From Acidimicrobiales bacterium (GTDB taxonomy: Bacteria > Actinomycetota > Acidimicrobiia > Acidimicrobiales > AC-14), in NCBI GenBank assembly GCA_035550945.1, contig DASZOE010000514.1, forward strand, positions 1 to 32,547: a DNA stretch of 32,547 bases, in the 5' to 3' direction. Under the pieces are notes generated by a model. The model was not told the DNA's origin. It ran no database searches and saw only the letters and a list, made by a program, of their open reading frames with translations. A program made the position numbers and the translations under genes. Shown in pieces: positions 5,009-32,547 of the stretch (its first letter is position 1; each line of letters begins with the position of its first letter).

Positions 5009-5013
5009 CCGCC

Positions 5014-10903: not shown

Positions 10904-10939
10904 CGTCACTCGCGTGGTGCGGCGCAGACGGTCGCCGCC

Positions 10940-11694: not shown

Positions 11695-13053
11695 TCACCT
11701 GCCGCAACGCACCCGGACGGAACGACCTGATGGCGAGACAGAGGGTCCATCGTCCTCCGCCACGGTGCACGTATCGCCTGGACTTGGTTCTGCCGCCGGG
11801 ACGGCACGAGCCCGACGGAGTTGCCTCGCCTTCCGGGCCTGCGTCACCACGGCGGCCAGGGCCCCGACGCCGATGCAGCTGGCGACGTCGAACGGTGCGC
11901 GCATGCGAGGGGTGGCGACCGTGACCGCGCTCAGCGCCGTGAACACCACCGCGGCGAGGACGAGTGGCCCGATGCCTCGGCCCCTCATTGCCCAGAGCCC
12001 GGCCATCCCCAGAAGGGACACGTAGCCCACGAGGGGGACGCTCAGGTGCTGCAGCGTCAGGTTGCGACCGTCGCGGCTCTCGGCGATGTCGTTGCGGCCG
12101 GCCTTGGGCTCGAACATGTTCTTGAGGCCGCCGGGCGCGATCCGGAGAACATGGCGGGGGTCGCGGCGGATCTCGGTCAGGGCGTGGCGCCGGAAGGCCG
12201 CATCCAGGTCCGCCTCGTTCGAGATGCCCGCTCTCAGGTCGGCAAAGCGGGGGTCGAAGAAGCCGTCGACGAACCCGCCTGACGCCTTGGCCTCGGGCGA
12301 GTAGATGGCGTTCAGGTTGAAACCGTTCGACGTCACCACCACCGGGGTGCCGAGGCGCTGCCAGTTCCGGATCACCCAGGGGGCGACGACCAGCGTCAGG
12401 CACACCCCGAAGGACAGGGCCCGACGCCAACCCAGTCGCCACAGGACCCATCCGGCGAGGACGACGACGAACACCTGAGCACTCGGACGGGTGAGCACCA
12501 GAAGCCCGGTCGCGGCGCCGGCCCACGCCGCCCTCCCGTCGAGCAGCAGCAGCACGACGGCCAGCAAGAGCAGCAATCCCAGGGGCTCGCTCAGCGGAGG
12601 GCCGTCGTTGAAGACCAGCGGTGGGTACACGGCCGTCACGATTCCCGTGACCACGCCCGCCGTCCGGCCGGCCAGGCGCCAGGCCGTCAGCGCCGCCAGC
12701 ACGACGACCCCCGTGCCCAAGACCACGTTGAGCGCCTCCGCCGCGCCCAGCCTGGGACCGGTGATCGCGTACACGCCGCCCAGCAACAAGGGGTAGAGCG
12801 GGGGCCTGAAGGCGGTGGCGTGGGGGTAGCCGAAGGGAAAGTCGTGCACCATGCCCCGGCCGTCGGCGATCGCGGTGGCCAGCGAGTGGTAGTGCCCGGC
12901 ATCGCTGACGGGCACGTAGCGGCGGAGCACGATCACCACGTAGAGCACTCGCACGACCAGCGCGCCGAGTCCTACCGCGAGCAGCCACCAGACCCGCCCG
13001 CTGTTCGGCGCCCCGAACGTGCGCCGGAGCCGGGAGAAGTGGGGCCGCCCCAC
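11695..13053 (-). CDS. GT-C fold membrane glycosyltransferase, PMT/ArnT-like (GT39/GT83-type), paralogue 1
   Basis: 452 aa, about 10 or more TM. Loop-1 motif VSDAGHYH followed by FRPPLYPLLLG and VYPPLVFNDGPPLSEPLG, typical of PMT_2/ArnT-like polyprenyl-phosphate-sugar transferases. The C-terminal ~50 aa are low-complexity with poorer GC3, so the true stop may once have been earlier. Confidence 0.75.
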   Translation of the reverse strand: MGRPHFSRLRRTFGAPNSGRVWWLLAVGLGALVVRVLYVVIVLRRYVPVSDAGHYHSLATAIADGRGMVHDFPFGYPHATAFRPPLYPLLLGGVYAITGPRLGAAEALNVVLGTGVVVLAALTAWRLAGRTAGVVTGIVTAVYPPLVFNDGPPLSEPLGLLLLLAVVLLLLDGRAAWAGAATGLLVLTRPSAQVFVVVLAGWVLWRLGWRRALSFGVCLTLVVAPWVIRNWQRLGTPVVVTSNGFNLNAIYSPEAKASGGFVDGFFDPRFADLRAGISNEADLDAAFRRHALTEIRRDPRHVLRIAPGGLKNMFEPKAGRNDIAESRDGRNLTLQHLSVPLVGYVSLLGMAGLWAMRGRGIGPLVLAAVVFTALSAVTVATPRMRAPFDVASCIGVGALAAVVTQARKARQLRRARAVPAAEPSPGDTCTVAEDDGPSVSPSGRSVRVRCGR

Positions 13054-13133
13054 GGCGCGTCAACCTATCCGGCGCATCCGACTCTGCCGCCGGCACTCGA
13101 CGGAGCGGTGTCGGTGCAGCACCCTGGAGGCTC

Positions 13134-14417
13134 ATGACCCACGCCCGGCGGTCCGAGGCTCGGGGAGACGCCACCGACCTCGACCGCCTCGGCGCCCGGA
13201 TCGCCGATCTCAAGGGCCGCTACGTGCCGGTGCCGCCCGCGTCCACCGCGGCCGTGACCGAGGCTCGGCCTGAGGGCGAGCGGGTACCGCGGCCGAGGCA
13301 CCGCGAGGCCATCGACCTCCTGGTGCTCTTCCTCGTGACCAGGGCCGTCCTCGTGGCCATCGGGCTCGTCTCGCGCCAGCTCTTCACCGGCCCCGTGCTT
13401 CGCCCCCGGCCGCTGGGAGTGGGCCCGTCGTTCTCGGGCTTCTCCTTTCTCGACATGTGGGGTCAATGGGACAGCTCGTGGTACCTGAGCATCGCCGAGT
13501 ACGGCTACAAGCCCGAGCTGCTGGAAGGTGCCCTGGCCAACTACGGCTTCTTCCCGCTGTACCCGCTCCTCGCCCGCTGGGTGGGATGGGCGGCCGGGAG
13601 CGCCTACCTGGGCGGCCTCGTCGTGTCCAACACGGCCTTCCTCGTCGCCTGTGTCTACCTCTACCGCCTGGTGGCGATCGACGACGGCTCGGCCACGGCC
13701 CGGCGAGTCGTGATCTACCTCTTCGCCTCGCCCGCCGGGTTCCTCTTCTCGGCGATGCTCACGGAGTCGCTCTACCTGGCGCTGGTGGTCATGTGCTTCT
13801 ACTTCGCCCGCACCCGGCGATGGTGGGCGGTGGGCCTGCTCGGCTTTGCGCTGGCGCTCTCCCGCGGCCCCGGCGTGTGGGCCGCCATCCCGCTGCTTTG
13901 GATGTACATGCAGGAACGCCGCTTCTCACTGCGCCGGGTCCGGCCCGACGTCTTGTGGTTCGCCTTGTTCCCCGCAGGGGTGGCCGTCTTCATGCTCGTG
14001 AACGAGGTCGTCACCGGGGACGCCCTGTCCTTCATCCGCATCCAGGCCACGGGCTGGGGCCACCACCTCCAGAACCCGCTCTCCGCCCTGTGGCAGGCCG
14101 TTTCGGATCCCAGCGTGTACGTGCGCTTCAACGCCTGGTTCATGGTCGGCGTCGTGGTCCTGACCGTCGTCCTCCTCAAGCGGTTCGGCGTGGCCTACGC
14201 CCTCTTCGTGGTGATCTCCGTGTTGATGCCACTGTCCTACGGCGTTCCGTGGGGGGCGATGGTGCGCTACACCGTGGTCATCTTTCCCTTCTACATCGCC
14301 GCCGCCCGGGCCACGGCGTCGAGGCCCGGTGTGCACCAGGCCGTCATCGTCGCCATGGCGCTACTGCAAGGGTTCCTGATGAGCCAGTGGGTCACCAACT
14401 CCCTGTTGTTGATCTGA
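13134..14417 (+). CDS. Polytopic membrane glycosyltransferase, PIG-V/mannosyltransferase-2-like (GT-C)
   Basis: 427 aa. WGQWDSSWYLSIAEYGY ... NYGFFPLYPLLARW matches the signature of bacterial PIG-V-like mannosyltransferase family proteins (from memory). GGAGG lies just upstream of the ATG at 13134. Confidence 0.65.
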   Translation: MTHARRSEARGDATDLDRLGARIADLKGRYVPVPPASTAAVTEARPEGERVPRPRHREAIDLLVLFLVTRAVLVAIGLVSRQLFTGPVLRPRPLGVGPSFSGFSFLDMWGQWDSSWYLSIAEYGYKPELLEGALANYGFFPLYPLLARWVGWAAGSAYLGGLVVSNTAFLVACVYLYRLVAIDDGSATARRVVIYLFASPAGFLFSAMLTESLYLALVVMCFYFARTRRWWAVGLLGFALALSRGPGVWAAIPLLWMYMQERRFSLRRVRPDVLWFALFPAGVAVFMLVNEVVTGDALSFIRIQATGWGHHLQNPLSALWQAVSDPSVYVRFNAWFMVGVVVLTVVLLKRFGVAYALFVVISVLMPLSYGVPWGAMVRYTVVIFPFYIAAARATASRPGVHQAVIVAMALLQGFLMSQWVTNSLLLI

Positions 14418-14474
14418 AGCTCGCCGCCGCCGGGCTTCCCGGGGAGGCGACCCACGGGTAACGTCCTGGCGACC

Positions 14475-15461
14475 GTGACGAGCGCCAACGCCGACAACCC
14501 TGCGTTGAAGATCGCCCGTGGCGGCGCGGGCGGAGATGGCCAGGAGGGCGAGGCCCGTCGCGTCGAGGTCGCCGAGACGACACCGCCGTTGTCCTTCGCC
14601 GGCCTGCTCCGCACCGCCCGCCCTCGGCACTGGGTGAAGAACCTGCTCGTCTTCGCGGCACCGGGGGCGGCAGGGCTGCTCACCGATCCGAGCGCCGTCG
14701 CGGTGGCGGCGGGAGCCTTCGCCGTCTTCTGCCTCGCCGCCAGCGGCACCTACTTCCTCAACGACGCCATCAACGTCGATGCCGACCGCCTCCACCCCAC
14801 GAAACGGCGGCGACCCGTCGCCACGGGCGCCGTGGGCGTGCGTCTGGCCACGGTGGTGGGCGGGGTGCTCCTGCTCGGCAGCATCGTCCTCGCCCTGCCC
14901 CTCGCCGGCTGGACGCTCGCCTTGGTGGTCGCCGTCTACGCCGGCCTCCAGCCCCTCTACAGCGTGTGGCTGCGGAACGTGCCCGTCGTCGACCTGGTGA
15001 CGGTGGCCGCCGGTTTCGTGCTCCGGGCCGTCGCCGGCGCCGTCGCGGTGGGCGTGCCGATCTCCCACTGGTTCCTTCTGGTCACGTCCTTCGGCTCGCT
15101 GTTCCTGGTCTCCGGCAAGCGCAGCGCCGAACACATGGACCTGGGCGAGGAACGGGCCCGTCACCGTGCGACTCTGGGTGACTACTCGCTGGGGTTCCTC
15201 CACCACGTGAGGTCGGTGTCGGCCTCGGTGGCCGTCGGGGCCTATTGCCTGTGGGCGTTCGAGCGGGGGGCGGGGGCCCCGGCCGCCGTCTGGTTCCAGC
15301 TCTCGATCGTCCCCTTCGTGCTCGTCAACCTCCGCTACGTCCAGCTGCTCGACGCCGGACGGGGGGGGTGTCCCGAGGAGCTCGTCTTCGAGGACCGCGT
15401 CCTCCAGGTGCTCGGGCTCCTGTGGCTGACGAGCGTCGCGGTGGCCATCCATGGCGGCTGA
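14475..15461 (+). CDS. ubiA: Decaprenyl-phosphate phosphoribosyltransferase (UbiA-family DPPR synthase, Rv3806c-like)
   Basis: RPRHWVKNLLVFAAPGAAGLL resembles Rv3806c IRPRQWVKNVLVLAAP. The UbiA Asp-rich motif is YFLNDAINVDADRLHPTKRRRPVATG. Located directly upstream of dprE1/dprE2. Confidence 0.85.
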   Translation: MTSANADNPALKIARGGAGGDGQEGEARRVEVAETTPPLSFAGLLRTARPRHWVKNLLVFAAPGAAGLLTDPSAVAVAAGAFAVFCLAASGTYFLNDAINVDADRLHPTKRRRPVATGAVGVRLATVVGGVLLLGSIVLALPLAGWTLALVVAVYAGLQPLYSVWLRNVPVVDLVTVAAGFVLRAVAGAVAVGVPISHWFLLVTSFGSLFLVSGKRSAEHMDLGEERARHRATLGDYSLGFLHHVRSVSASVAVGAYCLWAFERGAGAPAAVWFQLSIVPFVLVNLRYVQLLDAGRGGCPEELVFEDRVLQVLGLLWLTSVAVAIHGG

Positions 15462-16845
15462 GCCCGGCAGCGGACGACTCGTCACCGAGCTGCTCACCGG
15501 GTGGGGCCGGACGGCGCCGTCGCGGGCGTCGGTCGCCCGTCCCGCCCACCTCGAGGAGGTTCACGCCGTTCTCGGCGACCCACCCAGCCGCGGCGCCATC
15601 GCCCGGGGGCTGGGTCGCAGCTACGGCGACGCCGCCCAGTGCGCCGGCGGCACGGTGATCGACGTCACCGGGATGGCCAAGGTTCGCGGCTTCGACGGGG
15701 AGCGGGGGGTGGTCCGGGTCGATGCCGGCATCAGCCTGGGCGAGCTCACCCGCCTCGTCCTGCCGCTCGGCTGGTTCCCCCCCGTCGTGCCCGGCACCCG
15801 CCACGTCACCGTCGGGGGCGCGGTGGCCGCCGACATCCACGGCAAGAACCACCACGTGGACGGCAGCTTCTGTGACCACGTCGAGGGCTTCACCCTGCTC
15901 ACGCCCACGGGGACGGTCGAGGTCACGCCGGACTCCGAGCCCGACCTGTTCTGGGCGACGGCGGGGGGGATGGGCCTGACCGGCGTGGTCGGGGAGGTCA
16001 CCATTCGTCTCCAGCCCGTAGAGACCGCCTTCGTGCGTGTGGACACCGAGCGGGCGTGCGACCTCGACGACGCCCTGGCCCGGATGGAAGAGGGTGACCA
16101 TCGCTACCGCTATTCGGTGGCGTGGATCGACTGCCTGGCTCGGGGTGCGTCCCTGGGGCGCGCCGTGCTGACCCGGGGAGGGCATGCCAGCCTCGACGAC
16201 CTACCCGTCAAGGTGCGGCCAAAGGCGCTCCGCGCCGAGCCGAGGGTCGTCGGCACCGCGCCACCCTGGGCACCTCAGGGGCTCCTGAACCAAGCCTCGG
16301 TGCGGGCCTTCAACACTGTCTGGTTCCACAGGGCCCCTTCCCTCGAGCGCGGCCGCCTCCAACCCCTTCACCGCTTCTTCCACCCCCTCGACGCGGTGCA
16401 GGGGTGGAACCGCGTCTACGGCGAGCGCGGCTTCGTCCAGTACCAGTTCGTCGTGCCGGTGGGCCAGGAGCGGGCTCTGGCCCACGCCGTCGAGCGCCTG
16501 AGCGCGACCCGGTGCCCCTCGTTCCTCGCCGTTCTGAAGCGGTTCGGCGGCCACAACGACGGCCCTCTCTCCTTCCCCATGGCCGGGTGGACGCTCGCCC
16601 TCGACCTCCAGGTCGGCCCGCCTCGCGTCGGGCCCGTCCTGGACGAGCTCGACGAGGTGGTAGCCGAGGCCGGAGGCCGCGTCTACCTGGCCAAGGACGC
16701 CCGACTGCGCCCGGAGCTGCTGCCGGTGATGTACCCCCGCCTGGACGAGTGGCGCCGCGTGCAGGCCAAGGTCGACCCGACGGGCGTGCTGCGGTCCGAC
16801 CTGGCCCGCCGGCTCGGGCTCGTGGAACGGCAGGGTGTCGGGTGA
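15451..16845 (+). CDS. dprE1: Decaprenylphosphoryl-beta-D-ribose 2'-oxidase DprE1 (FAD)
   Basis: 464 aa, colinear with M. tuberculosis Rv3790 as I recall it: LTGWGRTAPS, IARGLGRSYGDAAQ, VTVGGAVAADIHGKNHH, LFWATAGGMGLTG, FFHPLD..GWNRVYG..GFVQYQFVVP, YLAKDARL, MYPRLDEW..V..KVDP. The ATG at 15451 overlaps the ubiA 3' end by 11 nt. Confidence 0.9.
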   Translation: MAAEPGSGRLVTELLTGWGRTAPSRASVARPAHLEEVHAVLGDPPSRGAIARGLGRSYGDAAQCAGGTVIDVTGMAKVRGFDGERGVVRVDAGISLGELTRLVLPLGWFPPVVPGTRHVTVGGAVAADIHGKNHHVDGSFCDHVEGFTLLTPTGTVEVTPDSEPDLFWATAGGMGLTGVVGEVTIRLQPVETAFVRVDTERACDLDDALARMEEGDHRYRYSVAWIDCLARGASLGRAVLTRGGHASLDDLPVKVRPKALRAEPRVVGTAPPWAPQGLLNQASVRAFNTVWFHRAPSLERGRLQPLHRFFHPLDAVQGWNRVYGERGFVQYQFVVPVGQERALAHAVERLSATRCPSFLAVLKRFGGHNDGPLSFPMAGWTLALDLQVGPPRVGPVLDELDEVVAEAGGRVYLAKDARLRPELLPVMYPRLDEWRRVQAKVDPTGVLRSDLARRLGLVERQGVG

Positions 16846-17603
16846 GGGACGCCCTCGGACGTCCGCAGTCGCTGCTCCTGCTCGGCGGCACCTCCGAGAT
16901 CGGGTTGGCCACGGCTCGGGCTCTCGTCTCCCGGCGGACCAGGACGGTGCTGCTGGCCGGGAGGCACCTCGACGCTCTGGAGAAGGCGGCTCGAGGGGTC
17001 CGGGAGGCAGGTGCGGAACGGGTGGAGGTCCTCGCCTTCGACGCCGATGACACCCGTTCCCACGCCGCCTTCGCCGACCACGCCTTCACGCACTACGGCG
17101 ACATCGACGTCGTGCTCCTCGCCTTCGGCGTCCTCGGTGACCAGCGTGCGGCGGAGGAGGATCCCGAGAGGGCCGTCGCTCTGCTCCGAACCAACATGGT
17201 GGGTGCCGCCTCGGTCGGTCTCCACTCCGCCCGGCACCTGCGCCGGCAGGGGCACGGCACCCTCGTCGTGCTCTCATCGGTGGCGGGCGAGCGAGCCCGG
17301 CGCTCGAACTTCGTCTACGGCGCCTCCAAGGCCGGCCTCGACGCCTTCTTCCAGGGCCTGGGCGACAGCCTGTGGGGCTCGGGCGTGAGGGTCCTCGTCG
17401 TGCGGCCGGGCTTCGTCCGGACCAAGATGACGGCCGGGCTCGAGCCCCCGCCGCTGTCGACGACGCCGGAGCGGGTGGGCGACGTCATCGTCCGGGCCGT
17501 CGAGACCGGTGCCGAGGAAGCCTGGGCCCCACCGCCGCTGCGCTTCGTCATGATCGGCCTGCGCCACCTCCCGCGCCCGCTGTTCCGGAAGCTGAAGGTG
17601 TGA
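16842..17603 (+). CDS. dprE2: Decaprenylphospho-2'-keto-ribose reductase DprE2 (SDR)
   Basis: GTG at 16842 overlaps the dprE1 stop (GTGA). 253 aa: PQSLLLLGGTSEIGLA, VLSSVAGERARRSNFVYGASKAGLD, VRVLVVRPGFVRTKM, LRHLPRPLFRKL, closely parallel to Rv3791. The 16122 start in the track is an artefactual extension inside dprE1. Confidence 0.9.
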   Translation: MRDALGRPQSLLLLGGTSEIGLATARALVSRRTRTVLLAGRHLDALEKAARGVREAGAERVEVLAFDADDTRSHAAFADHAFTHYGDIDVVLLAFGVLGDQRAAEEDPERAVALLRTNMVGAASVGLHSARHLRRQGHGTLVVLSSVAGERARRSNFVYGASKAGLDAFFQGLGDSLWGSGVRVLVVRPGFVRTKMTAGLEPPPLSTTPERVGDVIVRAVETGAEEAWAPPPLRFVMIGLRHLPRPLFRKLKV

Positions 17604-17619
17604 TCGCCGGACGGGCCGG

Positions 17620-18978
17620 TCAGACGTGGTTCCTGATGATCCAGGCGTACGAGTGGACGCCCGACGTCAGGATCAGCGCGGCGGCGATGCCCACCTTGTC
17701 CACCAACCAGTCGGCCCGGGCGAAGTTGTACCAGAAGAAGACGGCGAGGGGCAGTGCCGCAGGTGCATAGAGGTTCCAATCGTTGTACACGCCCAAGTCG
17801 GCTCTCCAGACGAAGACGTAACCCATGAAGACGATGACGGCGAGGGCCATGAAGATGTTGAACCGAGTCGGGGCGACCCGCTTGTAGGCGACGAGCGGGA
17901 CGAAGCAGAGCAGGGGCGGGAAGAGGAGGAACAAGAGGCTGACGATCTGGCCGTGGTACTCCAGGCTCGGCGCCGCGAACCGCCGCAACTTGCCCGCCTG
18001 CCCGAAAGCGTTGCTGGTGCGGATGACCTCGAACGGCAGGCCGTTGTGGTGGAAGTAGAGGAGCACCGCCGCCGGGATGGCAATGAGCGTCACCGCGGCC
18101 AAGGCCACCGACAGCAGCTGTCGGCGCTGCAGGGCGACGAGATACAGGTAGGCGAGGCTGAGGAGCAGGAAGGCGGCGAGGAGATGGAAGGTGACGGCCA
18201 CCGCCAGCACGCCGTTGGGTGCCAGCAGGCCGATCCGGCCCTCGAGGTACAGGTAGCCGGTCAACAGGTAGAGGAGGATCAGGGCGGTGACCAGCGTGTA
18301 GTTCTCCACGTCGCCGAAGAAGAGCTGCATGAAGCCAGCTGTCCCGACGCCGAGCACCAGAACGACCCACCGCTTCTCGCCCAGCGCCACCCAGCCGAGG
18401 GTGAGCAGCAGGACGACGGAGATCCCCCCCGCCACCGACGACAGGAACTGGTACGAGTACTCGACCGTCCAGCCGAAGGCGCGGCTCGTGTGATACCAGA
18501 AGCGGGAGTGCAGATACAGCTCCAGCATCTCGTCGTGAGAGACGGTCCCACCCCTGACCGGTAGGTCGGCATGGAACTTGTAGCTGAGCACCATGCCGTC
18601 CGGGTTGATGAACTGGTTCCGCAGACCGAGGAACCATGTGAAGCTGTACGTCCCCACGGCCAACGCCATCAGCACCCTGGCCCTGGAGCTGAGCCCGGCG
18701 ATTCGGGCGAGGAGAGCGTTGACGGGCCTCAGGACTCGATCCCACGGAAGGCGAAGGGTGACGCCGACGAGCACCGGAAGGACGAAGGCGAACCATCCCA
18801 GGGGCCGCAACTGATCGAAGCCGAACAGCATGCGTGCGACCGTGGGGAAACGATCCGTCAGCCCGACGGGCAGGACTGCGGCCGTCGCATAGAGAGTGGC
18901 CATCAGCAGGACGAGACTGCGGTAGAGAGCAGCCTCCCGGGTCTTCACCGCGGTCGGCGTCCCCTCGACGTCAGCCAC
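17620..18978 (-). CDS. Uncharacterised polytopic membrane protein (~12-13 TM); possible GT-C-type transferase or polymerase by context only
   Basis: 452 aa, very hydrophobic, with one large loop (RNQFINPDGMVLSYKFHADLPVRGGTVSHDEMLELYLHSRFWYH) after TM3. I recognise no family motif. Sample 60-nt lines I counted gave 32/60 and 36/60 G+C, against 42/60 in the neighbouring GT-C gene. Confidence 0.55.
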   Translation of the reverse strand: MADVEGTPTAVKTREAALYRSLVLLMATLYATAAVLPVGLTDRFPTVARMLFGFDQLRPLGWFAFVLPVLVGVTLRLPWDRVLRPVNALLARIAGLSSRARVLMALAVGTYSFTWFLGLRNQFINPDGMVLSYKFHADLPVRGGTVSHDEMLELYLHSRFWYHTSRAFGWTVEYSYQFLSSVAGGISVVLLLTLGWVALGEKRWVVLVLGVGTAGFMQLFFGDVENYTLVTALILLYLLTGYLYLEGRIGLLAPNGVLAVAVTFHLLAAFLLLSLAYLYLVALQRRQLLSVALAAVTLIAIPAAVLLYFHHNGLPFEVIRTSNAFGQAGKLRRFAAPSLEYHGQIVSLLFLLFPPLLCFVPLVAYKRVAPTRFNIFMALAVIVFMGYVFVWRADLGVYNDWNLYAPAALPLAVFFWYNFARADWLVDKVGIAAALILTSGVHSYAWIIRNHV

Positions 18979-19018
18979 GCCAGGACGCTACCGGCTCCCC
19001 CGGCCGGGATGAAGTGGG

Positions 19019-19699: not shown

Positions 19700-19712
19700 C
19701 ACGCCTGGGAGC

Positions 19713-20993: not shown

Positions 20994-21003
20994 CGAGGCT
21001 AAC

Positions 21004-24000
21004 TTGGCGGCTGGTCCGGGCGGGTCTCGACCCGGGTACCGTCGCCCGGTGCCATCGGGCAGTACGGCGTCGCGCCTACGGCTCGCGCTGATCGCTCTGG
21101 GAGCGTTCAGCGCGCTCGCTTCGCTGCTCGTGCCGCTGGCTCCCGTGCAGCAGCAGATGGCCACGTTCAGCTGGCCGGTCGACGGCTCGACCGCCCCGGT
21201 CGGGGTCCAGCTCTTCCCGTACCACCCGGAGTCGCTGACCGCCCGCTTCTCCTGTGAGACGGTAGGCGACGTCGCCCGGCGCATGCCCCGCGGCACGGTC
21301 TTCGCCACGGCGCCGAGCGACACCCCGGAGGGACGCCACGACGGCCTCGTGGTCGAGGTGTCCGGCGACACGCTCCTGGTGACCAGTCGTGGCCGGGTCC
21401 TGTTGACCGAACCGGTCGGGTCGACGACGGGCTGCGCCTGGCGGCTGAACTCGGACAGCAGCGTCACCGAGATCACCCGCGACGGCGTCCGCATGGCCCG
21501 CCTGGCCGAAGACCTGCGGCCCCAGGTGGTCGGCGTCTTCTCCGACCTCGACCCGGCGCAGGACGGCACCACCGGGCTGTCGGTCCAGATCCGGAGCGAC
21601 ACCCGGTTCCAGACGTCGCCGACGCCCTGGAAGCACGCGCTGATGGGGTTGGCCATCCTCGGCCTCGTCGCCGCCTTGGGGGCGCTCCGCCGGTTGGATC
21701 GTCGGGCCGAAACGACGACGGCGCGGGTGGCACCACGCGGATGGTGGCGGCCTCGGCTGCCCGACCTGCTCGTGGTCGGCGTCCTCGGGGTCTGGGCGGT
21801 CATCGGTCCGTTCACCGTGGACGACGGCTACATCCTCACCCAGGTGAAGGCGCGCCGGGGGAGCGGATTCGTCGGCAACTACTACCGCTGGTTCAACGCT
21901 CCCGAAGCCCCGTTCGGCTTCTTCTACGACCTGTTCTATGTGTGGGGGAAGGTCAGCCGGTCGCTGTTGTGGATGCGCGTCCCGGCCCTCCTGGCCGGCG
22001 TGACCAGCTGGCTGCTCGTCAGCCGGCTGGTGTTGCCCGCGCTCGGCGAAGGGCCGGCGACGAGCCGGGGCGTGCGCTGGGTGGCGGCCGTCGCGTTCCT
22101 CGCCGCGTGGATGCCCTACGACAGCGGCCTCCGCCCGGAGCCATTCGTCGTTCTGGGCACCCTGGCCACCTTGTGCGCGGTGGAGCGCACCTTGGCCAGC
22201 GAGCGTCTGCTGCCCCTGGCGCTGGGCGTCATCGCGGCCGTGGCCACGGTGGCGGTCACGCCCACCGGCGTCATTGCGCTCCTGCCCCTGCTGGTGGCGC
22301 CCCGGCGTCTGGCCGCAGTGATCTGGGACCGCCGGGACCTCCGGTGGGCGCCGCTGGCGGCCGTCCTCCTCGCCAGCGGGCTCAGTGTGCTGACGCTGAT
22401 GTTCTACGACCAGACACTCGGTGCGGTTGTGGAGGCGACCCGGGTGCGCAACGCCATCACTCCGGGCAGCTGGGACCGGGAGGTACTCCGGTACGGGCGC
22501 CTCCTCGACCCGCTGAGCCCGGAGGGGTCCTTCGCCCGGCGGATGCCCGTACTTCTCCTCGTCGGGGGCCTCGTCCTCGTCACCGCGACGCTCTTGCGCA
22601 ACCGCCGCGTCCCCGGAGTCGAGCGCGCCCCGGCGCAGCGCCTCCTGCTCGTCACGGGGCTCGCCTTCGCCGTCATCTCGGCGACCCCGACCAAGTGGAC
22701 GCACCACTTCGGCGCGTTCGCAGGGCTGGCGGCGGCGGTGCTGGCGCTGACCGCGTGGACGACGGCGACGGAGCTGTTCAGGTCCACGAGGCCCCGGGCG
22801 GTTGCGCTCGTGGGGCTGTCCGGCGTCCTCGCTCTGTCGCTCGCGGCGGCCAACCACTGGTGGTGGGTCTCTGTGCTGGACCCTCCGTGGCGCGACGAAC
22901 GGATCAGCGTCCTGGGCGTGCCGGTGCACACCCCCTTGGTGGTGGTGACCGTCCTGGTCTGTCTCATGGCCGTCGTGCTCGCGGGCTGGCGCGAGGCGCG
23001 GGGGCGCCCCCCCCGTCCCAGCCGCCTCCCGCCGCCGAGCGTCCTCCTGGCGGTCGGGCTCTGCCTGTCGGTCGCCATCCAGCTCGTCACCTTCCTGGTC
23101 GCGCCGGTCGAGCAGCGGAGGACCTATTCGATCGCCGAGCAGAACGTGAAGTCGGTGCTCTCGAGCAGCTGCGGGTTGGCCGACTCGGTGATGATCGAGG
23201 AGAGCGCCCAGGCCGGCGCCCTCTTTGCCGCTCCGGGGGGACTCGGGAGCGCCGAACCCGGGATCTTCGAGCGCAACGGAGGCTTCGCCCCCGAGCACCC
23301 GCCACTCCACCGGTTCGGCACCGAGGGCCTGGTGTTCGACGTCCCCGTCTGGGGCAGCCGGGTCGGCGAGCGGACCGACGGCGCCACCGGCACGGCCCGC
23401 AGCGGCTGGTACCAGATCGGGGACCGGTTGGGCGCGGCCAGCGCGCCGCTCGTCATCGCCGTCGCCGGTCGCACCCACGGCGGCAATCGCCTGGCCGTGG
23501 AGCTCGGCCGGCGCCGAGGTGATCGAGTCGATCGGTTGGAGACGATCGAGGTCGACGAGTTCGCCCATCGGCACCGGAACCGCATCGACGCCGCCCTCAA
23601 CCGGTTGCCGGTCGACACGCCGAGCTGGAGGGACATCCGGATCGACGTGCGCGACAAGCTGCCTCCCGACGCCGACGTGCTGCGCGTCGTGGCGACGGAC
23701 GGCAGCGTGGGCACGGGCGGGTGGTTGGCCTTCAGCGCGCCCCGGGCCCCCGTGCTCAGGACGTTGACGGACGCGGTCGGCGGCGACGCGGCTGTCGTCC
23801 TCGACTGGCCGGTGGGGGCGGCTTACCCCTGCGTGCAGCCGGCCACGCTGGCCCTCGGCGAGGTGCAGATGCCCCAGTGGCGCATCGCCGCCGCACTCTC
23901 CTCTCTGGGCGACACCGCGTTCGCCAAGGACCACGCCGGCCCGTTCGCCCCGTCCGTCGTGCTCGCCGACCAGGTCGAGCTCCCCACGTATCTGGCCAAC

Positions 24001-24153
24001 GACTGGAACGCCGAAGCGGCCAGCGTGTTCCGCATCGACGCGCCTCCGTTGGGACGACCGACGGTGTCGCTCGGCCGACGGGTGGAATGGGGCTGGTCGG
24101 CCCGGCCCCATCTCGTCATTCCCGGCATCGACGACGTGGGGACCGTCGAGTAG
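21004..24153 (+). CDS. Emb-type arabinosyltransferase (GT-C, GT53-like; EmbA/B/C family)
   Basis: About 1,035-1,049 aa. N-terminal FSWPVDG; GT-C loop motif VDDGYILTQVKARRGSGFVGNYYRWFNAPEAPFGFFYD, parallel to the Emb DDGYIL..NYfRWfg.pE.PFGW block; about 13 TM; a soluble C-terminal ~300 aa domain. The start is either TTG 21004 or in-frame GTG 21049. Confidence 0.85.
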   Translation: MAAGPGGSRPGYRRPVPSGSTASRLRLALIALGAFSALASLLVPLAPVQQQMATFSWPVDGSTAPVGVQLFPYHPESLTARFSCETVGDVARRMPRGTVFATAPSDTPEGRHDGLVVEVSGDTLLVTSRGRVLLTEPVGSTTGCAWRLNSDSSVTEITRDGVRMARLAEDLRPQVVGVFSDLDPAQDGTTGLSVQIRSDTRFQTSPTPWKHALMGLAILGLVAALGALRRLDRRAETTTARVAPRGWWRPRLPDLLVVGVLGVWAVIGPFTVDDGYILTQVKARRGSGFVGNYYRWFNAPEAPFGFFYDLFYVWGKVSRSLLWMRVPALLAGVTSWLLVSRLVLPALGEGPATSRGVRWVAAVAFLAAWMPYDSGLRPEPFVVLGTLATLCAVERTLASERLLPLALGVIAAVATVAVTPTGVIALLPLLVAPRRLAAVIWDRRDLRWAPLAAVLLASGLSVLTLMFYDQTLGAVVEATRVRNAITPGSWDREVLRYGRLLDPLSPEGSFARRMPVLLLVGGLVLVTATLLRNRRVPGVERAPAQRLLLVTGLAFAVISATPTKWTHHFGAFAGLAAAVLALTAWTTATELFRSTRPRAVALVGLSGVLALSLAAANHWWWVSVLDPPWRDERISVLGVPVHTPLVVVTVLVCLMAVVLAGWREARGRPPRPSRLPPPSVLLAVGLCLSVAIQLVTFLVAPVEQRRTYSIAEQNVKSVLSSSCGLADSVMIEESAQAGALFAAPGGLGSAEPGIFERNGGFAPEHPPLHRFGTEGLVFDVPVWGSRVGERTDGATGTARSGWYQIGDRLGAASAPLVIAVAGRTHGGNRLAVELGRRRGDRVDRLETIEVDEFAHRHRNRIDAALNRLPVDTPSWRDIRIDVRDKLPPDADVLRVVATDGSVGTGGWLAFSAPRAPVLRTLTDAVGGDAAVVLDWPVGAAYPCVQPATLALGEVQMPQWRIAAALSSLGDTAFAKDHAGPFAPSVVLADQVELPTYLANDWNAEAASVFRIDAPPLGRPTVSLGRRVEWGWSARPHLVIPGIDDVGTVE

Positions 24154-24243
24154 CGGTTCGGTGGCGTGGTCGGCCGCGCCGCTATGCTGAGCCGCCTCGG
24201 GCGTGGGCACGGCGACGCCAGGGCGGCGAGCGGGAAGGAAGCC

Positions 24244-25284
24244 ATGACAGACGAGTTGGTGGTCGTCAGCGGGGCAGGCGGCTTCATCGGCGGCCACCTG
24301 GTGGCCGACATGCTCCGACAGGGTCGGAGGGTCAGAGCCGTCGACGTCAAGCCGCCGGCCCACTGGTACCAGCTGCATCCCCGCGCCGAGAACCTGGTGC
24401 TCGACCTCACCGAGCTCGGCGCCTGCCGGGAGGCCGTCCGGGGCGCGGCCGAGGTCTACAACCTCGCGGCCGACATGGGCGGGATGGGCTTCATCGAGAA
24501 CCACAAGGCAGAGTGCATGCTGTCGGTCCTCATCAACACCCACCTGCTCGTCGCGGCGAGGGACGCCGGGGTGAGGTCGTACTTCTTCGCCAGCTCGGCA
24601 TGCGTCTACGCGGCCGACCGGCAGACGTCTCCGGACGTCACCGCCCTCAGGGAGGGCGACGCCTACCCGGCCATGCCCGAGGACGGCTACGGCTGGGAGA
24701 AGCTCTTCAGCGAGCGGATGTGCCGGCACTTCCAGGAGGACTTCGGTCTGGAGACGGTCGTCGCCCGCTATCACAACGTGTACGGCGAGCACGGCACCTA
24801 CCGCGGCGGCAGGGAGAAGGCTCCGGCGGCGATCTGCAGGAAGGTGATCGAGGCCAAGCTGTCGGGGCGCCACGAGATAGAGATCTGGGGCGACGGCCAG
24901 CAGACCCGCAGCTTCATGTACATCAGCGACTGCATCTACGGCACGCAACGGATCATGGCGAGCCGGATCCCGGAACCGATCAACCTGGGCAGCTCGGAGC
25001 TGGTCACCATCGACGGGCTTGTGGACATCGTCGAAGGCATCGCCGGCATCCACCTGCAGCGCAACTACAACCGGCGCGCGCCACTGGGAGTGCGGGGCCG
25101 CAACAGCGACAACACCCTCATCCGTCGCTACCTCGGCTGGGAGCCGTCCGTCCCGCTCGAAGAGGGGATCGAGAAGACCTACCGCTGGATCTACGAAGAG
25201 ATGACCGGCGTCGAGGGGGCGGCGGTCAGAAATGGCTCCGGTAACGGTCGAATGCTTCCCGGGTCTGTCGGGGCAGGAAGCTGA
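24244..25284 (+). CDS. NAD-dependent sugar-nucleotide epimerase, GDP-mannose 3,5-epimerase (GME)-like SDR
   Basis: ATG at 24244 preceded by GGGAAGGAAG. GAGGFIGGHL; NLAADMGGMGFI, ASSACVY, GYGWEKL, GGREKAPAAICRK, WGDGQQTRSF and GVRGRNSDN all parallel plant/bacterial GME blocks as I recall them (NLAADMGGMGFI, GGREKAPAAFCRK, GVRGRNSDN). Confidence 0.75.
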   Translation: MTDELVVVSGAGGFIGGHLVADMLRQGRRVRAVDVKPPAHWYQLHPRAENLVLDLTELGACREAVRGAAEVYNLAADMGGMGFIENHKAECMLSVLINTHLLVAARDAGVRSYFFASSACVYAADRQTSPDVTALREGDAYPAMPEDGYGWEKLFSERMCRHFQEDFGLETVVARYHNVYGEHGTYRGGREKAPAAICRKVIEAKLSGRHEIEIWGDGQQTRSFMYISDCIYGTQRIMASRIPEPINLGSSELVTIDGLVDIVEGIAGIHLQRNYNRRAPLGVRGRNSDNTLIRRYLGWEPSVPLEEGIEKTYRWIYEEMTGVEGAAVRNGSGNGRMLPGSVGAGS

Positions 25285-26137
25285 ACAGGGCGTCGGCGTC
25301 CCCGGCGAGCGCTTCCACGATGGCCAGGTTGTACTCGTAGCCGATGTACTCCTGCCGCATGTCGACGACAGGATCGTGGACGTTGCGCTCCTGGACCACC
25401 GAGGGCTTCCCGTACACGACGCTGGCCCCCTTGGCCTGGACGTAGTAACCGGCCCAGATGTCGTCCATGCGGCCGACGTGGGGGAAGAGGAAGTAGTCGC
25501 GGAGCCAGCGTCCGGCCAGGAAGGTGTTCTGCGAGTTGAAGGGGCTGACGACGTCGGCGGCGATCGGGAACATTGCCGCGTCGAACCGGCACCGAGGGTC
25601 GTACTGCATGCGACAGATGGCGTCGACGTCGGGGTCCCCGTCCCAGAAGTCCGCCTGGATGTCGGCGCGCACCACGTCCCGGACGGAGGTGGAGTAGTCC
25701 CGCTTGGACAGGAGCTGCAGTGGGTAGCCCCGGTGCCACAGGTGGGGGTAGTTGGTGGCGCCCACCGGGTCGAAGGCCGGTAGGCCGGTCGTGAAGACGT
25801 TGGCCTCGACCTCCCGGTCGAGGAGCAGGTCCGTCCCCCATCCGGCGCAGGGGACGTTGTCGTCGTCGACCACCGCCACCACTTCGGCGCCCATCTCGTG
25901 GGCGACGAGGAACCCGTAGTTCCGCCGCTGGATGCAGTTCCAGCCGATGAGCCCCGAGAGCCGCTTGTCGATGCTCTCCTGCTCCTCGGGGCCGACGTAC
26001 CGCCCCGCCTCCAAGCGGTAGTCCTCGGGCGTCTTCAGGTCACCCACCACCACGAGCTGCCATCCGGGCATCGAGTCGAAGAGGCGGACCGCCTTCGTCG
26101 GGGGATTGATCGTCGTCGTCACGATGACCCGGGTCAC
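25226..26137 (-). CDS. DUF288/STELLO-like putative glycosyltransferase (GT75-related)
   Basis: Only the last 303 codons of track ORF 25226..27556 look coding. GTG at 26137 overlaps the upstream GT2 stop (GTGA). The sequence VIVTTTINPPTKAVRLFDSMPGWQLVVVGDLKTPEDY...RRNYGFLVAHEMGAEVVAVVDDDNVP follows the DUF288 pattern (TTI.PT.AV..L....W.LVVVGD.KTP....RKN.GYL.AI.HGA..I...DDDN) as I remember it. Confidence 0.55.
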   Translation of the reverse strand: MTRVIVTTTINPPTKAVRLFDSMPGWQLVVVGDLKTPEDYRLEAGRYVGPEEQESIDKRLSGLIGWNCIQRRNYGFLVAHEMGAEVVAVVDDDNVPCAGWGTDLLLDREVEANVFTTGLPAFDPVGATNYPHLWHRGYPLQLLSKRDYSTSVRDVVRADIQADFWDGDPDVDAICRMQYDPRCRFDAAMFPIAADVVSPFNSQNTFLAGRWLRDYFLFPHVGRMDDIWAGYYVQAKGASVVYGKPSVVQERNVHDPVVDMRQEYIGYEYNLAIVEALAGDADALFSFLPRQTREAFDRYRSHF

Positions 26138-26907
26138 CGCACGCTCCCGTCGACGCCCGGCCTCAGCATGGCGGACGGAGGCTTGAGGCGATTCGTGACC
26201 AGCGTGCCGATGTACCTGGCCTGGGTGGCAACGGAGTTCTGGGACTCTCCGTCCCGCCTCGGGTTCCAGAAGGTCGGTATCTCGATGACCTCGACGCCCA
26301 GGCGCAGGGGCTTCAGCACCGTCTCGAGCAGGAACTCGTGACGGAGGCCCTCCCAACGGATCGCCTTCACCAGCGGGGTGGGGAAGAGGCGGTAGCCGAA
26401 GGTGGCGTCGGTGAGCCGGGTGCGGTAGACGACCGACGTCATGCGTTGGAACACCCAGTTCAAGCCGACCCGGACCGGGCCGTAGCCGGAGAACCCCCCG
26501 CCCGTCGCCCACCGCGACGCGGTCACGACGGCTCGGGGGTTCGCCCTGGCCACCTCGACGAACTGGGGCACGATCGCGGGATCGGTCTCGAGGTCGCTGG
26601 CCATCATCAGCACGTGGCTGGCGGTCGCCAGATCGAACGTCTCCCGGATCGCACCGCCGAGGTACGGCAGCCGCTGGTGGTGGATCCGGAGGCGGTCGCC
26701 GAACTGCTCGTGCAGACCCTCGCACCTCCTGAGGCTCTCCCTGGTCGTCCGATCGCAGACGACCACGAGGACCTCGGCGATGTCCTTGTCGCTCGTCTCC
26801 CCGAGGATCTTCGCGGTCTCGTCCAGCGAGTCCGTCTCGGTCACGACCGGAAGGACGACGCTCGTTCCTGAGAACGTGTGGTCGGCCGGAACAGGTGCGT
26901 CCAACAC
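26134..26907 (-). CDS. Family-2 glycosyltransferase, DPM1/polyprenyl-phosphate glycosyltransferase-like
   Basis: 257 aa from GTG 26907 (AGAGG 5 nt upstream). SVVLPVVTE.., MMASDLETDP (DxD-type) and ATFGYRLF..EFLLETV are typical of dolichyl/polyprenyl-phosphate hexose synthases. Confidence 0.8.
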   Translation of the reverse strand: MLDAPVPADHTFSGTSVVLPVVTETDSLDETAKILGETSDKDIAEVLVVVCDRTTRESLRRCEGLHEQFGDRLRIHHQRLPYLGGAIRETFDLATASHVLMMASDLETDPAIVPQFVEVARANPRAVVTASRWATGGGFSGYGPVRVGLNWVFQRMTSVVYRTRLTDATFGYRLFPTPLVKAIRWEGLRHEFLLETVLKPLRLGVEVIEIPTFWNPRRDGESQNSVATQARYIGTLVTNRLKPPSAMLRPGVDGSVR

Positions 26908-27145
26908 TCTGACCTCTTCTCCCGCGAAGACTGGCCGACCGCCTGTGGCCGGGGGCCAGCCCGGACGTTAGTCGCGAGCGGGGGGTATCCCGTCTCCCTG
27001 GCCCGTCCGACGGCGGAACGGGAAGAACCCGGATCGGCCCTTGGGCAGGTGACCGCGCCGGTAACGGCCGTACGGCCCGGTGAAGGGTCGGGAAAGCTCC
27101 CGAAAATGCGCGTTGGCCCCAACCGCGGCCAGTAGGGTGGAGCTT

Positions 27146-27553
27146 GTGAAAACTTTCACGAGCGGAAACGAAGACCAGCCGCCAGCCCGAACGGGCACCG
27201 GCCCGGACGTCGACGTGCTGATCCGGGCCCTGGATGCCAGCGGCCGCTACCGGCGCGACTCGCGGCTGGGTCGGATCTACCACCGGGGGGCGACGTCCTA
27301 CCGGGAGCTCCGGCCCACCGACAGCTTCCACGTCGTCATCGACCGTGGCCGGGTGTCGGTGCACGTCGATCGCATCTCGCCCATCAAGTCGCGGTCCGAC
27401 GGCTCGGCGCGTCTCTCGCTCACGCGCGTCGTCGCCCACAACCTGGCCGGGGCCCACGGCGAGCTCGCCCGGCGCGTGCGCCGCCGCGTCGGCGCCGACC
27501 GCGGCGCCGTCGGCGCCCCGGTGGTCCTCACCGTTCGCCTGGGCGACTCGTGA
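27146..27553 (+). CDS. Hypothetical small protein (135 aa), translationally coupled to the downstream acyltransferase
   Basis: GTG at 27146 with GGTGGAG 4 nt upstream. Arg-rich soluble protein (..SFHVVIDRGRVSVHVDRISPIKSR..). I recognise no family. The stop overlaps the next gene's GTG (GTGA at 27550-27553). Confidence 0.5.
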   Translation: MKTFTSGNEDQPPARTGTGPDVDVLIRALDASGRYRRDSRLGRIYHRGATSYRELRPTDSFHVVIDRGRVSVHVDRISPIKSRSDGSARLSLTRVVAHNLAGAHGELARRVRRRVGADRGAVGAPVVLTVRLGDS

Positions 27554-28890
27554 CACGCTCGGGCACCGTCACCTTCAGCGTCATCGACGAGGCCGTCCAC
27601 CTGCTCGACACGGAGGCGGCGCCCTGGAGCATCCAGCTCGAGGTCCGGGTGGCCGGGCGCCTCGACGAGGCGCGCCTGCGGGACGCCTTCGGCCGGGCGC
27701 TCGCCCTCCACCCCATGGCCAGGGTCCGAAAGGTGGCGTCACGGCGCACTGAGCACACGGACCGCTGGGAGATCACGCCCGAGGCCGGCGTCGACCCCCT
27801 CCGGGTCGTCGACTGCCCCGACGACGGCGGCGTCGCCCGTGTCCGGGAGGAGCTGCAGGGCCTCGCCGTCCCCCTCGCCGAGTCGCCCCCGCTGCGGGCC
27901 CGCCTGGTCCACGACCCCGGCGGCGACCTGCTCATGCTCAACGCCAACCACGCCGCCATGGACGGCTTCGGGGCACTGCGGGTCCTGCGGTCGGTGGCCC
28001 ACGCCTACGCCGAGGAGCCCGAAGCCGGCGCTGGGCCCGACCCGATCGAGGCCCGGGCCCGGCTCGGCGAGCTCGGCGGCGTCGGGGGCCGCATCCGGGG
28101 CCGGCGGCACCTGGCGCTGGCGGGCAAGCTCACAGACGTCGTGGCGCGCCCGGCCCGGGTTGCAGCCCAAGGCGCCAGCGACCACGCCGGCTACGGATTC
28201 CATCACCTGGTCCTCCCCGCCTCCCTGACGCGGGCGCTCGTCGAGCTGCGGCATCCCGGGACGGTCAACGACGTCCTGCTCGCCGCCCTGCACCTGGCCA
28301 TCGCCGCCTGGAACGCGCGGCGCGGCGAGCGCTGTGGGCGCATCGGGGTACTCGTGCCCGCCAACCTGCGCCCGCCGGCCTGGCGCCGCGAGGTCGTGGG
28401 GAACTTCTCCCTGCCGGCCCGGGTGTCCACCAACCGCCGGCACCGCCGGCAGCCGGAGTCGGCCCTGCTGGCGCTCACCGCCCAGACCCAGCGCAAGAAG
28501 GAGGTGGGGATGGGCACCGCCCTCCTCGAGGTGCTCGGGCGCGCCGACCGCCTACCGCTGTGGGCCAAGCAGGCCATGATCATGTCCCTGCCCCTCGGGG
28601 GCAACCGCCTGGTCGACACGGCCATGCTCTCGAACCTTGGCCCACTGCAGGACCCACCGTCGTTCGGCACAGGGGCAGGGCCGACGGTCGAGGCTTGGTT
28701 CTCGCCTCCGGCCCGCATGCCCCTCGGGCTCACCGTGGGGGCCGTGACTCTCGACAGCCGGCTCCACGTGGTCCTGCGCTACCGCCACCGCCTGCTCGAC
28801 GCCCGAGCCGCCGGTGTCTTCGCCGACGAACTCGTGGCCGAGGTGGTCGGCCTCGTCGAGCGCACGGCGTCGAAGTCGCGGGCGTCCTGA
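27550..28890 (+). CDS. Condensation-domain / PapA- or WS-DGAT-like acyltransferase
   Basis: 446 aa. The active-site block LMLNANHAAMDGFGAL is the HHxxxDG motif with the first His replaced by Asn. Size and the downstream ..NLGPL.. region fit stand-alone C-domain acyltransferases. Confidence 0.65.
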   Translation: MTRSGTVTFSVIDEAVHLLDTEAAPWSIQLEVRVAGRLDEARLRDAFGRALALHPMARVRKVASRRTEHTDRWEITPEAGVDPLRVVDCPDDGGVARVREELQGLAVPLAESPPLRARLVHDPGGDLLMLNANHAAMDGFGALRVLRSVAHAYAEEPEAGAGPDPIEARARLGELGGVGGRIRGRRHLALAGKLTDVVARPARVAAQGASDHAGYGFHHLVLPASLTRALVELRHPGTVNDVLLAALHLAIAAWNARRGERCGRIGVLVPANLRPPAWRREVVGNFSLPARVSTNRRHRRQPESALLALTAQTQRKKEVGMGTALLEVLGRADRLPLWAKQAMIMSLPLGGNRLVDTAMLSNLGPLQDPPSFGTGAGPTVEAWFSPPARMPLGLTVGAVTLDSRLHVVLRYRHRLLDARAAGVFADELVAEVVGLVERTASKSRAS

Positions 28891-31648: not shown

Positions 31649-31649
31649 A

Positions 31650-32408: not shown

Positions 32409-32547
32409 GTCGAGCCGGACCACCCGATCGTCGGGCCGGTAGGCGGCGGGCCTCCCGGGTAGGGAGGACCTGTCGGAAGGAGCAAATTCCCATGGCTCTG
32501 GTCGCAACCCTTCCCCCGACCGAACTCCCGCCCGACCCGTTCCCGGG

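Follow-up and report, generated by a model that had tools for sequence, protein, structure and literature searches.

The synthesis of decaprenylphosphoryl-D-arabinofuranose (DPA) and the Emb-type arabinosyltransferases are drug targets known almost only from mycolata. We analysed a cluster carrying genes for both on a contig assigned to the Acidimicrobiales (DASZOE010000514.1). The window analysed was the whole contig (32,547 bp, 72% G+C), and absences from it reported here cover 32.5 kb of genome. Third-position GC (GC3 frame analysis) was used to tell real genes from the many shadow open reading frames (ORFs), and 14 genes were placed within positions 11695–28890 (Table 1), with coordinates and gene order matching those of a first-pass annotation that had described one compact arabinan cluster. 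The genes are indeed adjacent, but what was read as one compact cluster combines two modules, each conserved by itself: module A (11695–19699), which encodes a GT-C-fold protein (GTCa), two polytopic membrane proteins (mem427 and mem452), UbiA, DprE1, DprE2 and a HAD phosphatase, and module B (19713–26907), which encodes a second GT-C-fold protein (GTCb), Emb, a GDP-mannose 3,5-epimerase (GME), a 303-aa mutase homologue and a GT2 glycosyltransferase. We give slightly better than an even chance to the reading that the locus joins two modules, each of which would supply a polyprenyl-phosphate-linked furanose donor to membrane glycosyltransferases at the outer face.

The separate conservation of the modules was apparent from other genomes. 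All seven module A genes were found together in one metagenome-assembled genome (MAG; locus L171, GCA_030777325.1), where GTCa is divergent from a mem427-UbiA-DprE1-DprE2-HAD series that converges on mem452 (identities 41–77%). Five of these genes (GTCa divergent from mem427-UbiA-DprE1-DprE2, 69–83% identity) were present in locus L170 before the contig stops, and mem427, GTCa and mem452 occurred together without DPA genes in locus L172. Across these loci, GTCa orthologues were 76–83% identical and divergent from the mem427 gene in all three, mem427 orthologues were 61–69% identical and in the equivalent position in all three, and mem452 orthologues were 66–80% identical and adjoined module A genes in L171 and L172. 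Module B was kept at 84–92% identity on a metagenome contig (L081), including a GTCb orthologue (84% identical) divergent from emb; in place of module A, that contig has four unrelated genes between a DUF222-HNH gene and GTCb. In uncultured Actinomycetota the DPA genes thus look like a portable unit that also includes a HAD phosphatase and three membrane proteins not studied before, and this widens the range of enzymes that may use DPA.

At the level of homology, the DPA route through UbiA, DprE1 and DprE2 is complete in module A. The UbiA-type decaprenylphosphoryl-5-phosphoribose (DPPR) synthase scored 354.7 bits against equivalog NF008978 (cut-off 207) and also matched PF01040, DprE1 scored 594 bits against NF053785 (cut-off 500) and 401 bits against Mycobacterium tuberculosis DprE1 structures, and DprE2 scored 342 bits against NF053786 (cut-off 250). 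A look-up of the exact DprE1 sequence returned no match. The genes overlap just as originally read, at 15451/15461 (UbiA-dprE1) and 16842/16845 (dprE1-dprE2, 4 nt), and profile searches, which had been named beforehand as the test of the Emb and DprE assignments, upheld both. Cys387 of M. tuberculosis DprE1 is the cysteine attacked covalently by benzothiazinones (BTZ). The aligned residue in the window protein is alanine ('PMAGWTLALDL' aligned to 'PIPGWNICVDF'), and covalent inhibitors of the BTZ type would be expected to have no effect on this enzyme.

The 5'-phosphate of DPPR may be removed by an enzyme of another family than in mycobacteria. No PAP2 domain of the Rv3807c type was detected in any window ORF, and a HAD-IB phosphatase gene that had been missed in the earlier gene list (likely start ATG 19699) lies next to mem452; its product matched PF12710 (108 bits) and TIGR01490 (109 bits, cut-off 98) and has the DxDxT motif. 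In L171, a HAD gene of the same subfamily sits directly 3' of dprE2. Because of this co-operonic arrangement, and because HAD-family phosphoribose phosphatases are established in lipid-pentofuranose pathways derived from phosphoribosyl pyrophosphate (PRPP) (PMC11127046), the HAD-IB protein is a candidate DPPR 5'-phosphatase that would stand in for the PAP2 enzyme.

The membrane partners of the DPA genes were harder to place. GTCa gave weak matches to PMT_2 and NF046093, and it is 60% identical to GTCb, in agreement with the initial recognition of two paralogous GT-C proteins. The GTCa/b family has an acidic residue after the first transmembrane (TM) segment (Asp44 in 'VSDA') that is invariant in 26 sequences. 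A profile of this family searched against PDB sequences returned spurious matches only, to cytochrome b, and a fold search was therefore needed. The AlphaFold2 (AF2) model of GTCb (pLDDT 90) retrieved only GT-C enzymes with Foldseek (AglB/STT3/PglB, ArnT, ALG9, AftB, PMT, PimE and AftD; probability 1.0, TMq 0.39–0.55), and we assign GTCb a GT-C fold on the strength of this model.

By comparison, mem427 had no Pfam match and only a sub-threshold match to NF046093 (28 bits), and its relation to the GTCa/b family was not significant (hhalign E 0.049); it is a possible GT-C enzyme. It had been called PIG-V-like; no PF04188 match was obtained even at E ≤ 10, the only trace being a 'faint' PF04188 record for the L171 orthologue, and that label is unproven. 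For mem452, Pfam, NCBIfam and PDB sequence searches gave no match, and hhalign did not connect it with the GTCa/b family. Its description as a 13-TM protein of no recognised family holds for its polytopic nature, while the count stands at at least 10 TM segments by crude hydropathy. It belongs to an unannotated family with 806 representative homologues; within module A it is a candidate for a transporter or for an enzyme that handles glycans. Many of the homologues P0369–P0439 are longer (670–1,080 aa), the membrane domain being fused at its N-terminal side to one or two PA14 carbohydrate-binding domains.

We compared module A with the two kinds of system in which such genes have been described. 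In common with mycobacterial and corynebacterial DPA-Emb systems, it has a UbiA-type DPPR synthase, DprE1 and DprE2 at equivalog level, with dprE1 and dprE2 translationally coupled. Unlike mycobacteria, however, the contig has a single Emb (theirs have two or three), lacks aftC, aftD and a Rv3789-type flippase in addition to the genes considered below, and has its DPA genes grouped with three further membrane proteins. Three-component extracytoplasmic pentofuranose systems, including that for D-arabinofuranose (D-Araf) on Pseudomonas pilin, were described by Kelly et al. 2024 PNAS (PMC11127046). In these, a polyprenyl-phosphoribose synthase dependent on PRPP is combined with a phosphatase step of the HAD family and, for Araf, with DprE1/E2, and the lipid donor is used outside the cytoplasm by a GT-C enzyme. 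Module A follows the same pattern, with synthase, DprE1/E2 and GT-C all present. In contrast to those systems, its HAD is a separate HAD-IB protein instead of being fused to the synthase, and the window adds mem427, mem452 and an adjacent Emb polymerase. Those systems also have a MATE-family flippase and a GT-C of family GT136; no window ORF had a MATE Pfam match, and the window GT-Cs match no Pfam family. The view that DPA genes with non-canonical GT-C partners were undescribed gives way to this non-Emb/Aft precedent. Module A varies the theme of the DPA and three-component pentofuranose systems: its HAD is a protein of its own, no flippase can be recognised, and the membrane partners are new.

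In module B, the identification of a single Emb-type arabinosyltransferase proved sound. The protein matched all three Emb domains (PF04602, Arabinose_trans, 505 bits; PF17689, N domain, 109 bits; PF14896, C domain, 160 bits), aligned over its full length with EmbC (7bve/7bvh, 481 bits) and with the EmbC C-terminal domain (3pty, E 1e-17), and keeps the catalytic DDGY motif ('TVDDGYIL' aligned to EmbC 'TADDGYIL'). It therefore shares with mycobacterial Emb its full length, both carbohydrate-binding domains and DDGY, and is predicted from its sequence to be a GT53 arabinofuranosyltransferase. Its start may be GTG 21049.

The three remaining genes of module B specify a cassette of predicted nucleotide-sugar and lipid-loading enzymes, for which we assessed each assignment in turn. 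The GME-like epimerase, whose start at 24244 has a ribosome-binding site, scored 290 bits to 8sg0 and 282 bits to 2c59 (plant GME structures), compared with at most 99 bits for other short-chain dehydrogenases/reductases (SDRs), and keeps the catalytic motifs SSAC, YxxxK (YGxEK) and GGREKAPAA; judged by these alignments, the earlier designation was right and the enzyme is a true GDP-mannose 3,5-epimerase. Its gene converges on that of the 303-aa protein, with the 3' ends overlapping by 59 bp (25226–25284), and an equal 59-bp overlap is present in L081 (11894–11952).

The 303-aa protein had been read as a DUF288/STELLO-like glycosyltransferase, and this has to be replaced. It matched MtdL (7xpr/7yua) by phmmer (E 5e-15), and its AF2 model (pLDDT 82) was closest in fold to MtdL (TMq 0.74) and rice UAM2 (0.61), with other GT-A proteins below 0.45. 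MtdL, from the pathway to the antibiotic A201A, is a Mn-dependent GDP-L-galactopyranose/furanose mutase, and together with Hyg20 represents the bacterial GT75 GDP-L-galactose/GDP-L-fucose pyranose-furanose mutases (PMC9937993). Among 26 family members, little or no variation was seen at D91-D93/N94, R136, D168, S202/Q203, R223 and D226, which correspond to MtdL DDD/N, R159, D195, S228/Q229, R257 and D260 and make up most of the residues found to be essential in MtdL; D170 lies alongside D168 within a GDPDxDA motif. The motifs kept across the family are DDDN, the catalytic Arg, GDPDxDA, SQ, RxxD and a loop Arg/His. We accordingly describe the protein as a GT75/RGP-like mutase homologue, predicted from sequence and model to be a GDP-L-galactopyranose mutase. 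MtdL itself is reportedly accompanied in the A201A cluster by a GME-type partner, MtdM. The window protein thus shares with MtdL the GT75 fold, key residues, and pairing with a GDP-mannose 3,5-epimerase, but is shorter (303 versus 376 aa), only ~23% identical, and paired with a polyprenyl-phosphate-type GT2 instead of antibiotic genes.

For that GT2, the reading as DPM1-like was borne out by a PF00535 match, by DPMS (5mlz) as its sole PDB sequence match, and by its family profile. Because this profile matches DPMS (1e-16, positions 3–226), ArnC (1.6e-10, 2–220) and GtrB (9e-9, 4–174) over most or all of the catalytic domain, whereas ordinary GT2 enzymes align to it only in the N-terminal half, the protein is placed by homology with the polyprenyl-phosphate glycosyltransferases. 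No hydrophobic segment that could serve as a membrane anchor was found in the GT2, and an anchor is not universal in this class, being absent from mycobacterial Ppm1 and human DPM1. With Gtr and PpgS/Rv3779 systems, the latter of which are said to provide the galactosamine decoration of mycobacterial arabinan, the cassette has in common a polyprenyl-phosphate-type GT2 beside GT-Cs and a presumed logic of loading in the cytoplasm and transfer outside. It differs in its predicted sugar, an L-hexofuranose from GME and the mutase, in a GT2 without a TM segment, and in having no GtrA-like flippase. The cassette hence follows the Gtr/PpgS logic of a lipid-linked donor and a GT-C enzyme, and its predicted sugar sets it apart.

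We next considered how widely the cassette is distributed. More than 5,000 sequences are homologous to the 303-aa protein (E ≤ 1e-5), the cassette is spread over thousands of genomes from several phyla, and homologues are 65–77% identical across Actinomycetota, Acidimicrobiales-labelled MAGs and Alphaproteobacteria. These highly conserved proteins are unnamed or 'hypothetical' in their sources, bar one generic JGI label, and a few carry a precomputed PF03214 match. In a survey of 82 loci besides the window (80 metagenome and two genome), the GT2 gene was directly upstream of, and co-directional with, the mutase gene in most. An SDR epimerase adjoined the pair in more than 30 of the 82, and was GME-like in about 13 (42–71% identity to the window GME). 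GT-C-type genes (PMT_2-like, GT87, AftB_C) adjoined the cassette in loci L085 and L086.

Two kinds of cassette neighbourhood deserve description in their own right. Most copies from outside the lineage of the window (L086, L095–L100, L108, L110–L112 and others) have, directly downstream of the 303-aa homologue, an SDR that is 24–29% identical to GME, with best matches to GDP-L-fucose synthase (Fcl), GME or UDP-GlcA 4-epimerase, all sub-threshold. In an Actinobacteria MAG (L085), the cassette is flanked by Wzm/Wzt-type ABC transporter genes together with several GT-Cs of the PMT_2-like kind, and an AftB_C-domain gene (12665–13774) lies 2 kb away from it; over 21 kb, this locus showed no DPA genes.

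Taken together, these assignments suggest the following scheme. With PRPP as the source, UbiA would attach phosphoribose to polyprenyl phosphate, the HAD-IB enzyme would strip the 5'-phosphate, and DprE1 with DprE2 would epimerise C2 to give polyprenyl-phosphoryl-D-arabinofuranose. GTCa, mem427 and mem452 are likely users or handlers of this donor because they travel with DPA genes in other genomes. In module B, the combination of GME, a GT75 mutase homologue and a polyprenyl-phosphate-type GT2 points to a lipid-linked L-hexofuranose: GME would form GDP-L-galactose, the mutase, by analogy with MtdL, would convert it to GDP-L-galactofuranose, and the soluble DPMS-like GT2 would load the sugar onto polyprenyl phosphate, yielding polyprenyl-phosphoryl-L-galactofuranose. 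The first-pass suggestion of an L-hexose is strengthened and sharpened by these three genes. Emb would polymerise or extend an arabinan from DPA, with GTCb acting as a further GT-C, and both donors would be used outside the membrane by Emb, GTCa, GTCb, mem427 and mem452. The product would be an envelope glycoconjugate with arabinofuranose in it, in which L-hexofuranose may be a further component or a decoration. While the enzyme identities are established at the homology level, as is the conservation of each module, we infer the donor structures, the pairing of GT-Cs with donors, and the feeding of one polymer by both modules.

L-galactofuranose is the six-carbon homologue of D-arabinofuranose, which makes shared or related GT-C enzymes plausible. 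A more specific proposal can be built on this, namely that the cassette makes polyprenyl-phosphoryl-L-galactofuranose for GT-Cs in many phyla, and that here Emb and/or GTCa/b use it to build an envelope polymer with both D-Araf and L-galactofuranose; we offer this tentatively and think it rather unlikely to hold in full. To our knowledge, L-galactofuranose is so far known from one antibiotic, and full-text searches of the literature on L-galactofuranose and GDP-L-galactose mutase returned no envelope or lipid-linked example. If the proposal is true, it would provide the first envelope role for bacterial GT75 mutases, the first cell-surface glycan containing L-galactofuranose, and a new lipid-linked hexofuranose donor. 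For the cassette family itself, a route to lipid-linked L-hexofuranose is the best-supported reading.

Several observations weigh against these proposals. Linkage of Emb to the cassette was seen in the window and one close relative (L081) only, the loci of two Emb relatives (L001 and L082, 66–67% identity) had only emb in common with the window and neither module nearby, and none of the 82 other cassette loci carried Emb, UbiA or DprE genes. Polytopic membrane ORFs were only modestly enriched near the cassette, by a crude method (1.3 versus 0.9 per 10 kb), and no flippase of the GtrA/SMR or MATE type was identified in the window. Most cassette loci carry the non-GME SDR, so that no single sugar can be assigned to the whole family, and the furanose made may differ from lineage to lineage. 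As for the 303-aa protein, its score against Pfam RGP (PF03214) was 14.9 bits, below the gathering threshold of 23.8, and two MtdL residues, the Mn ligand His287 and the essential Asp87, are replaced by Gln249 and Ile69, which are nearly invariant in the family, such that it could have another substrate or activity.

The alternative that survives best is that the modules are independent and became adjacent by chance or through recent rearrangement, with module A serving pentofuranose side-chain or protein glycosylation (of the Citrobacter O-antigen or Pseudomonas pilin Araf types), the cassette serving a different glycan, and Emb acting separately. The L170, L171 and L172 loci fit this well, having, over the stretches covered, module A genes but neither Emb nor the cassette, as do the occurrence of module B without module A in L081, the cassette loci free of DPA and Emb genes, and the presence of a DUF222-HNH gene at the variable junction. 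However, GTCa and GTCb, one in each module, are paralogues (60% identity), which suggests related acceptors or donors, and in the window the HAD and mem452 genes of module A run in the same direction as GTCb of module B. We regard independence as unlikely, although it is the competitor to which we attach most weight.

The DUF222-HNH endonuclease gene (9770–10903) forms the left edge of the cluster. An 85% identical orthologue lies on the equivalent side in L081 (1334–2467), and a DUF222 gene is also found beside the GTCa/mem427/mem452 trio in L172 (7216–8355). The gene may mark a rearrangement or insertion hot spot.

We also asked whether the locus could be ordinary arabinan machinery, in which a chemotype-IV-like or mycolata-related host makes classical arabinogalactan (AG) or lipoarabinomannan (LAM), glf, glfT2, aftA and aftB lie elsewhere, and the other genes are bystanders. 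The closest genome match to Emb was an unclassified Actinomycetota MAG (67%), followed by Allokutzneria (51%), the nearest cultured source, and Pseudonocardiaceae (~38%). Emb of Allokutzneria belongs to a canonical AG locus (Allokutzneria oryzae, L083: four emb, aftA, dprE1/E2, ubiA, a PAP2 gene and glfT2), and a Pseudonocardia locus (L084) has aftB and glfT2. This resemblance lends the alternative some credit, as does the fact that the window is a whole contig with the rest of the genome outside view. Yet profile searches of the ORFs found none of glf, glfT2, aftA and aftB on the 32.5-kb contig (the genome beyond it may still hold AG genes), in keeping with the first-pass annotation, which had seen none of those galactan or Aft genes; the locus is not syntenic with classical AG/LAM loci. 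In addition, the conserved unit contains three non-Emb/Aft membrane proteins and a HAD where a PAP2 enzyme would be expected, and the named homologues of the accessory genes came from MAGs labelled Acidimicrobiales, Gaiellaceae or Actinomycetota, not mycolata. Classical AG/LAM synthesis thus appears less probable still than unrelated modules.

A further alternative concerns the 303-aa protein, which might be a GT-A glycosyltransferase or a self-glycosylating protein, with L-galactopyranose or L-gulopyranose delivered through the GT2 to lipid or passed straight to an acceptor. GT75 proteins do have a GT-A fold and autoglycosylation activity (PMC9937993), and the loss of His287 and Asp87 and the sub-threshold RGP score speak for this reading. 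Nine other residues needed for MtdL mutase activity or substrate binding nevertheless show little or no variation across the family, the two best structural neighbours are both GT75 (the mutase MtdL and rice UAM2), and the degree of identity across phyla suits a nucleotide-sugar enzyme better than an acceptor-specific transferase, which makes a non-mutase role improbable. Finally, a secondary-metabolite cluster, in which GME and the mutase feed L-galactofuranose (A201A) or a related furanose (hygromycin A) and the condensation-like protein performs tailoring, was rejected as highly implausible, since, although the only characterised bacterial GT75 enzymes, MtdL and Hyg20, come from antibiotic pathways (PMC9937993) and a condensation-like gene is nearby, the contig has no polyketide synthase, nonribosomal peptide synthetase, nucleoside or aminocyclitol genes, the partner GT2 is of the polyprenyl-phosphate type, the cassette spans thousands of genomes (in L086 beside the housekeeping genes hrcA-grpE and RNase PH), and the condensation gene is not conserved with it.

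Table 1. Genes of the locus, with positions in the window (bp) and the basis of each assignment.
Feature	Position	Strand	Basis or remark
GTCa, 452-aa GT-C-fold membrane glycosyltransferase (predicted), module A	11695–13053	-	60% paralogue of GTCb
mem427, 427-aa polytopic membrane protein, first gene of DPA operon	13134–14417	+	no Pfam match
UbiA/DPPR synthase (predicted polyprenyl-phosphate phosphoribosyltransferase, Rv3806c type)	14475–15461	+	NF008978, PF01040
DprE1, predicted decaprenylphosphoryl-ribose 2'-oxidase	15451–16845	+	NF053785
DprE2, predicted keto-reductase finishing epimerisation of decaprenylphosphoryl ribose (DPR) to DPA	16842–17603	+	NF053786
mem452, 452-aa polytopic membrane protein, uncharacterised family	17620–18978	-	no family match; ≥10 TM
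HAD-IB phosphatase	19019–19699	-	PF12710, TIGR01490
GTCb, GT-C-fold glycosyltransferase (predicted), module B, divergent from emb	19713–20993	-	AF2 model and Foldseek
Emb-type (GT53) arabinofuranosyltransferase (predicted), single copy	21004–24153	+	three Emb Pfam domains, EmbC structures
GME, predicted GDP-mannose 3,5-epimerase	24244–25284	+	plant GME structures
303-aa GT75/RGP-like NDP-sugar pyranose/furanose mutase homologue	25226–26137	-	MtdL sequence and fold match
Soluble GT2, DPMS/ArnC/GtrB-like	26134–26907	-	PF00535, DPMS 5mlz
157-aa protein	27080–27553	+	no family match
446-aa condensation/WS-DGAT-like protein	27550–28890	+	sub-threshold Condensation match

The two genes downstream of module B (27080–28890), which overlap each other, are doubtful members of the system. 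A condensation-like gene is present, as first annotated, though its product scored below threshold for Condensation (24.8 bits, cut-off 30.6) and for TIGR02946 (39 bits versus 310), and has an HAAMDG motif. In L081 the position beside module B is taken by a different gene, and no other locus examined had the condensation-like gene either, leaving the suggested acyl groups unsupported.

Elsewhere on the contig, no tRNA genes, rRNA genes or Rfam matches were detected in its 32.5 kb. The stretch of ~790 bp between the HNH gene and GTCa (10904–11694) has 74% G+C, a weak codon-position signal, and no convincing gene. Upstream of the cluster, positions 2226–7518 encode a HisKA_3 kinase, a LuxR-type response regulator, an ABC ATPase and a large FtsX-type permease; this is a typical sensing and efflux module, for which no tie to the glycan genes was found. 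Near the other end of the contig, a single 341-aa ORF (31482–32507, reverse strand) combines Sigma70 region 2 (residues 84–149), with region 4 undetected, and a zf-HC2 anti-sigma motif (267–293), and may represent a sigma/anti-sigma fusion or a frameshift.

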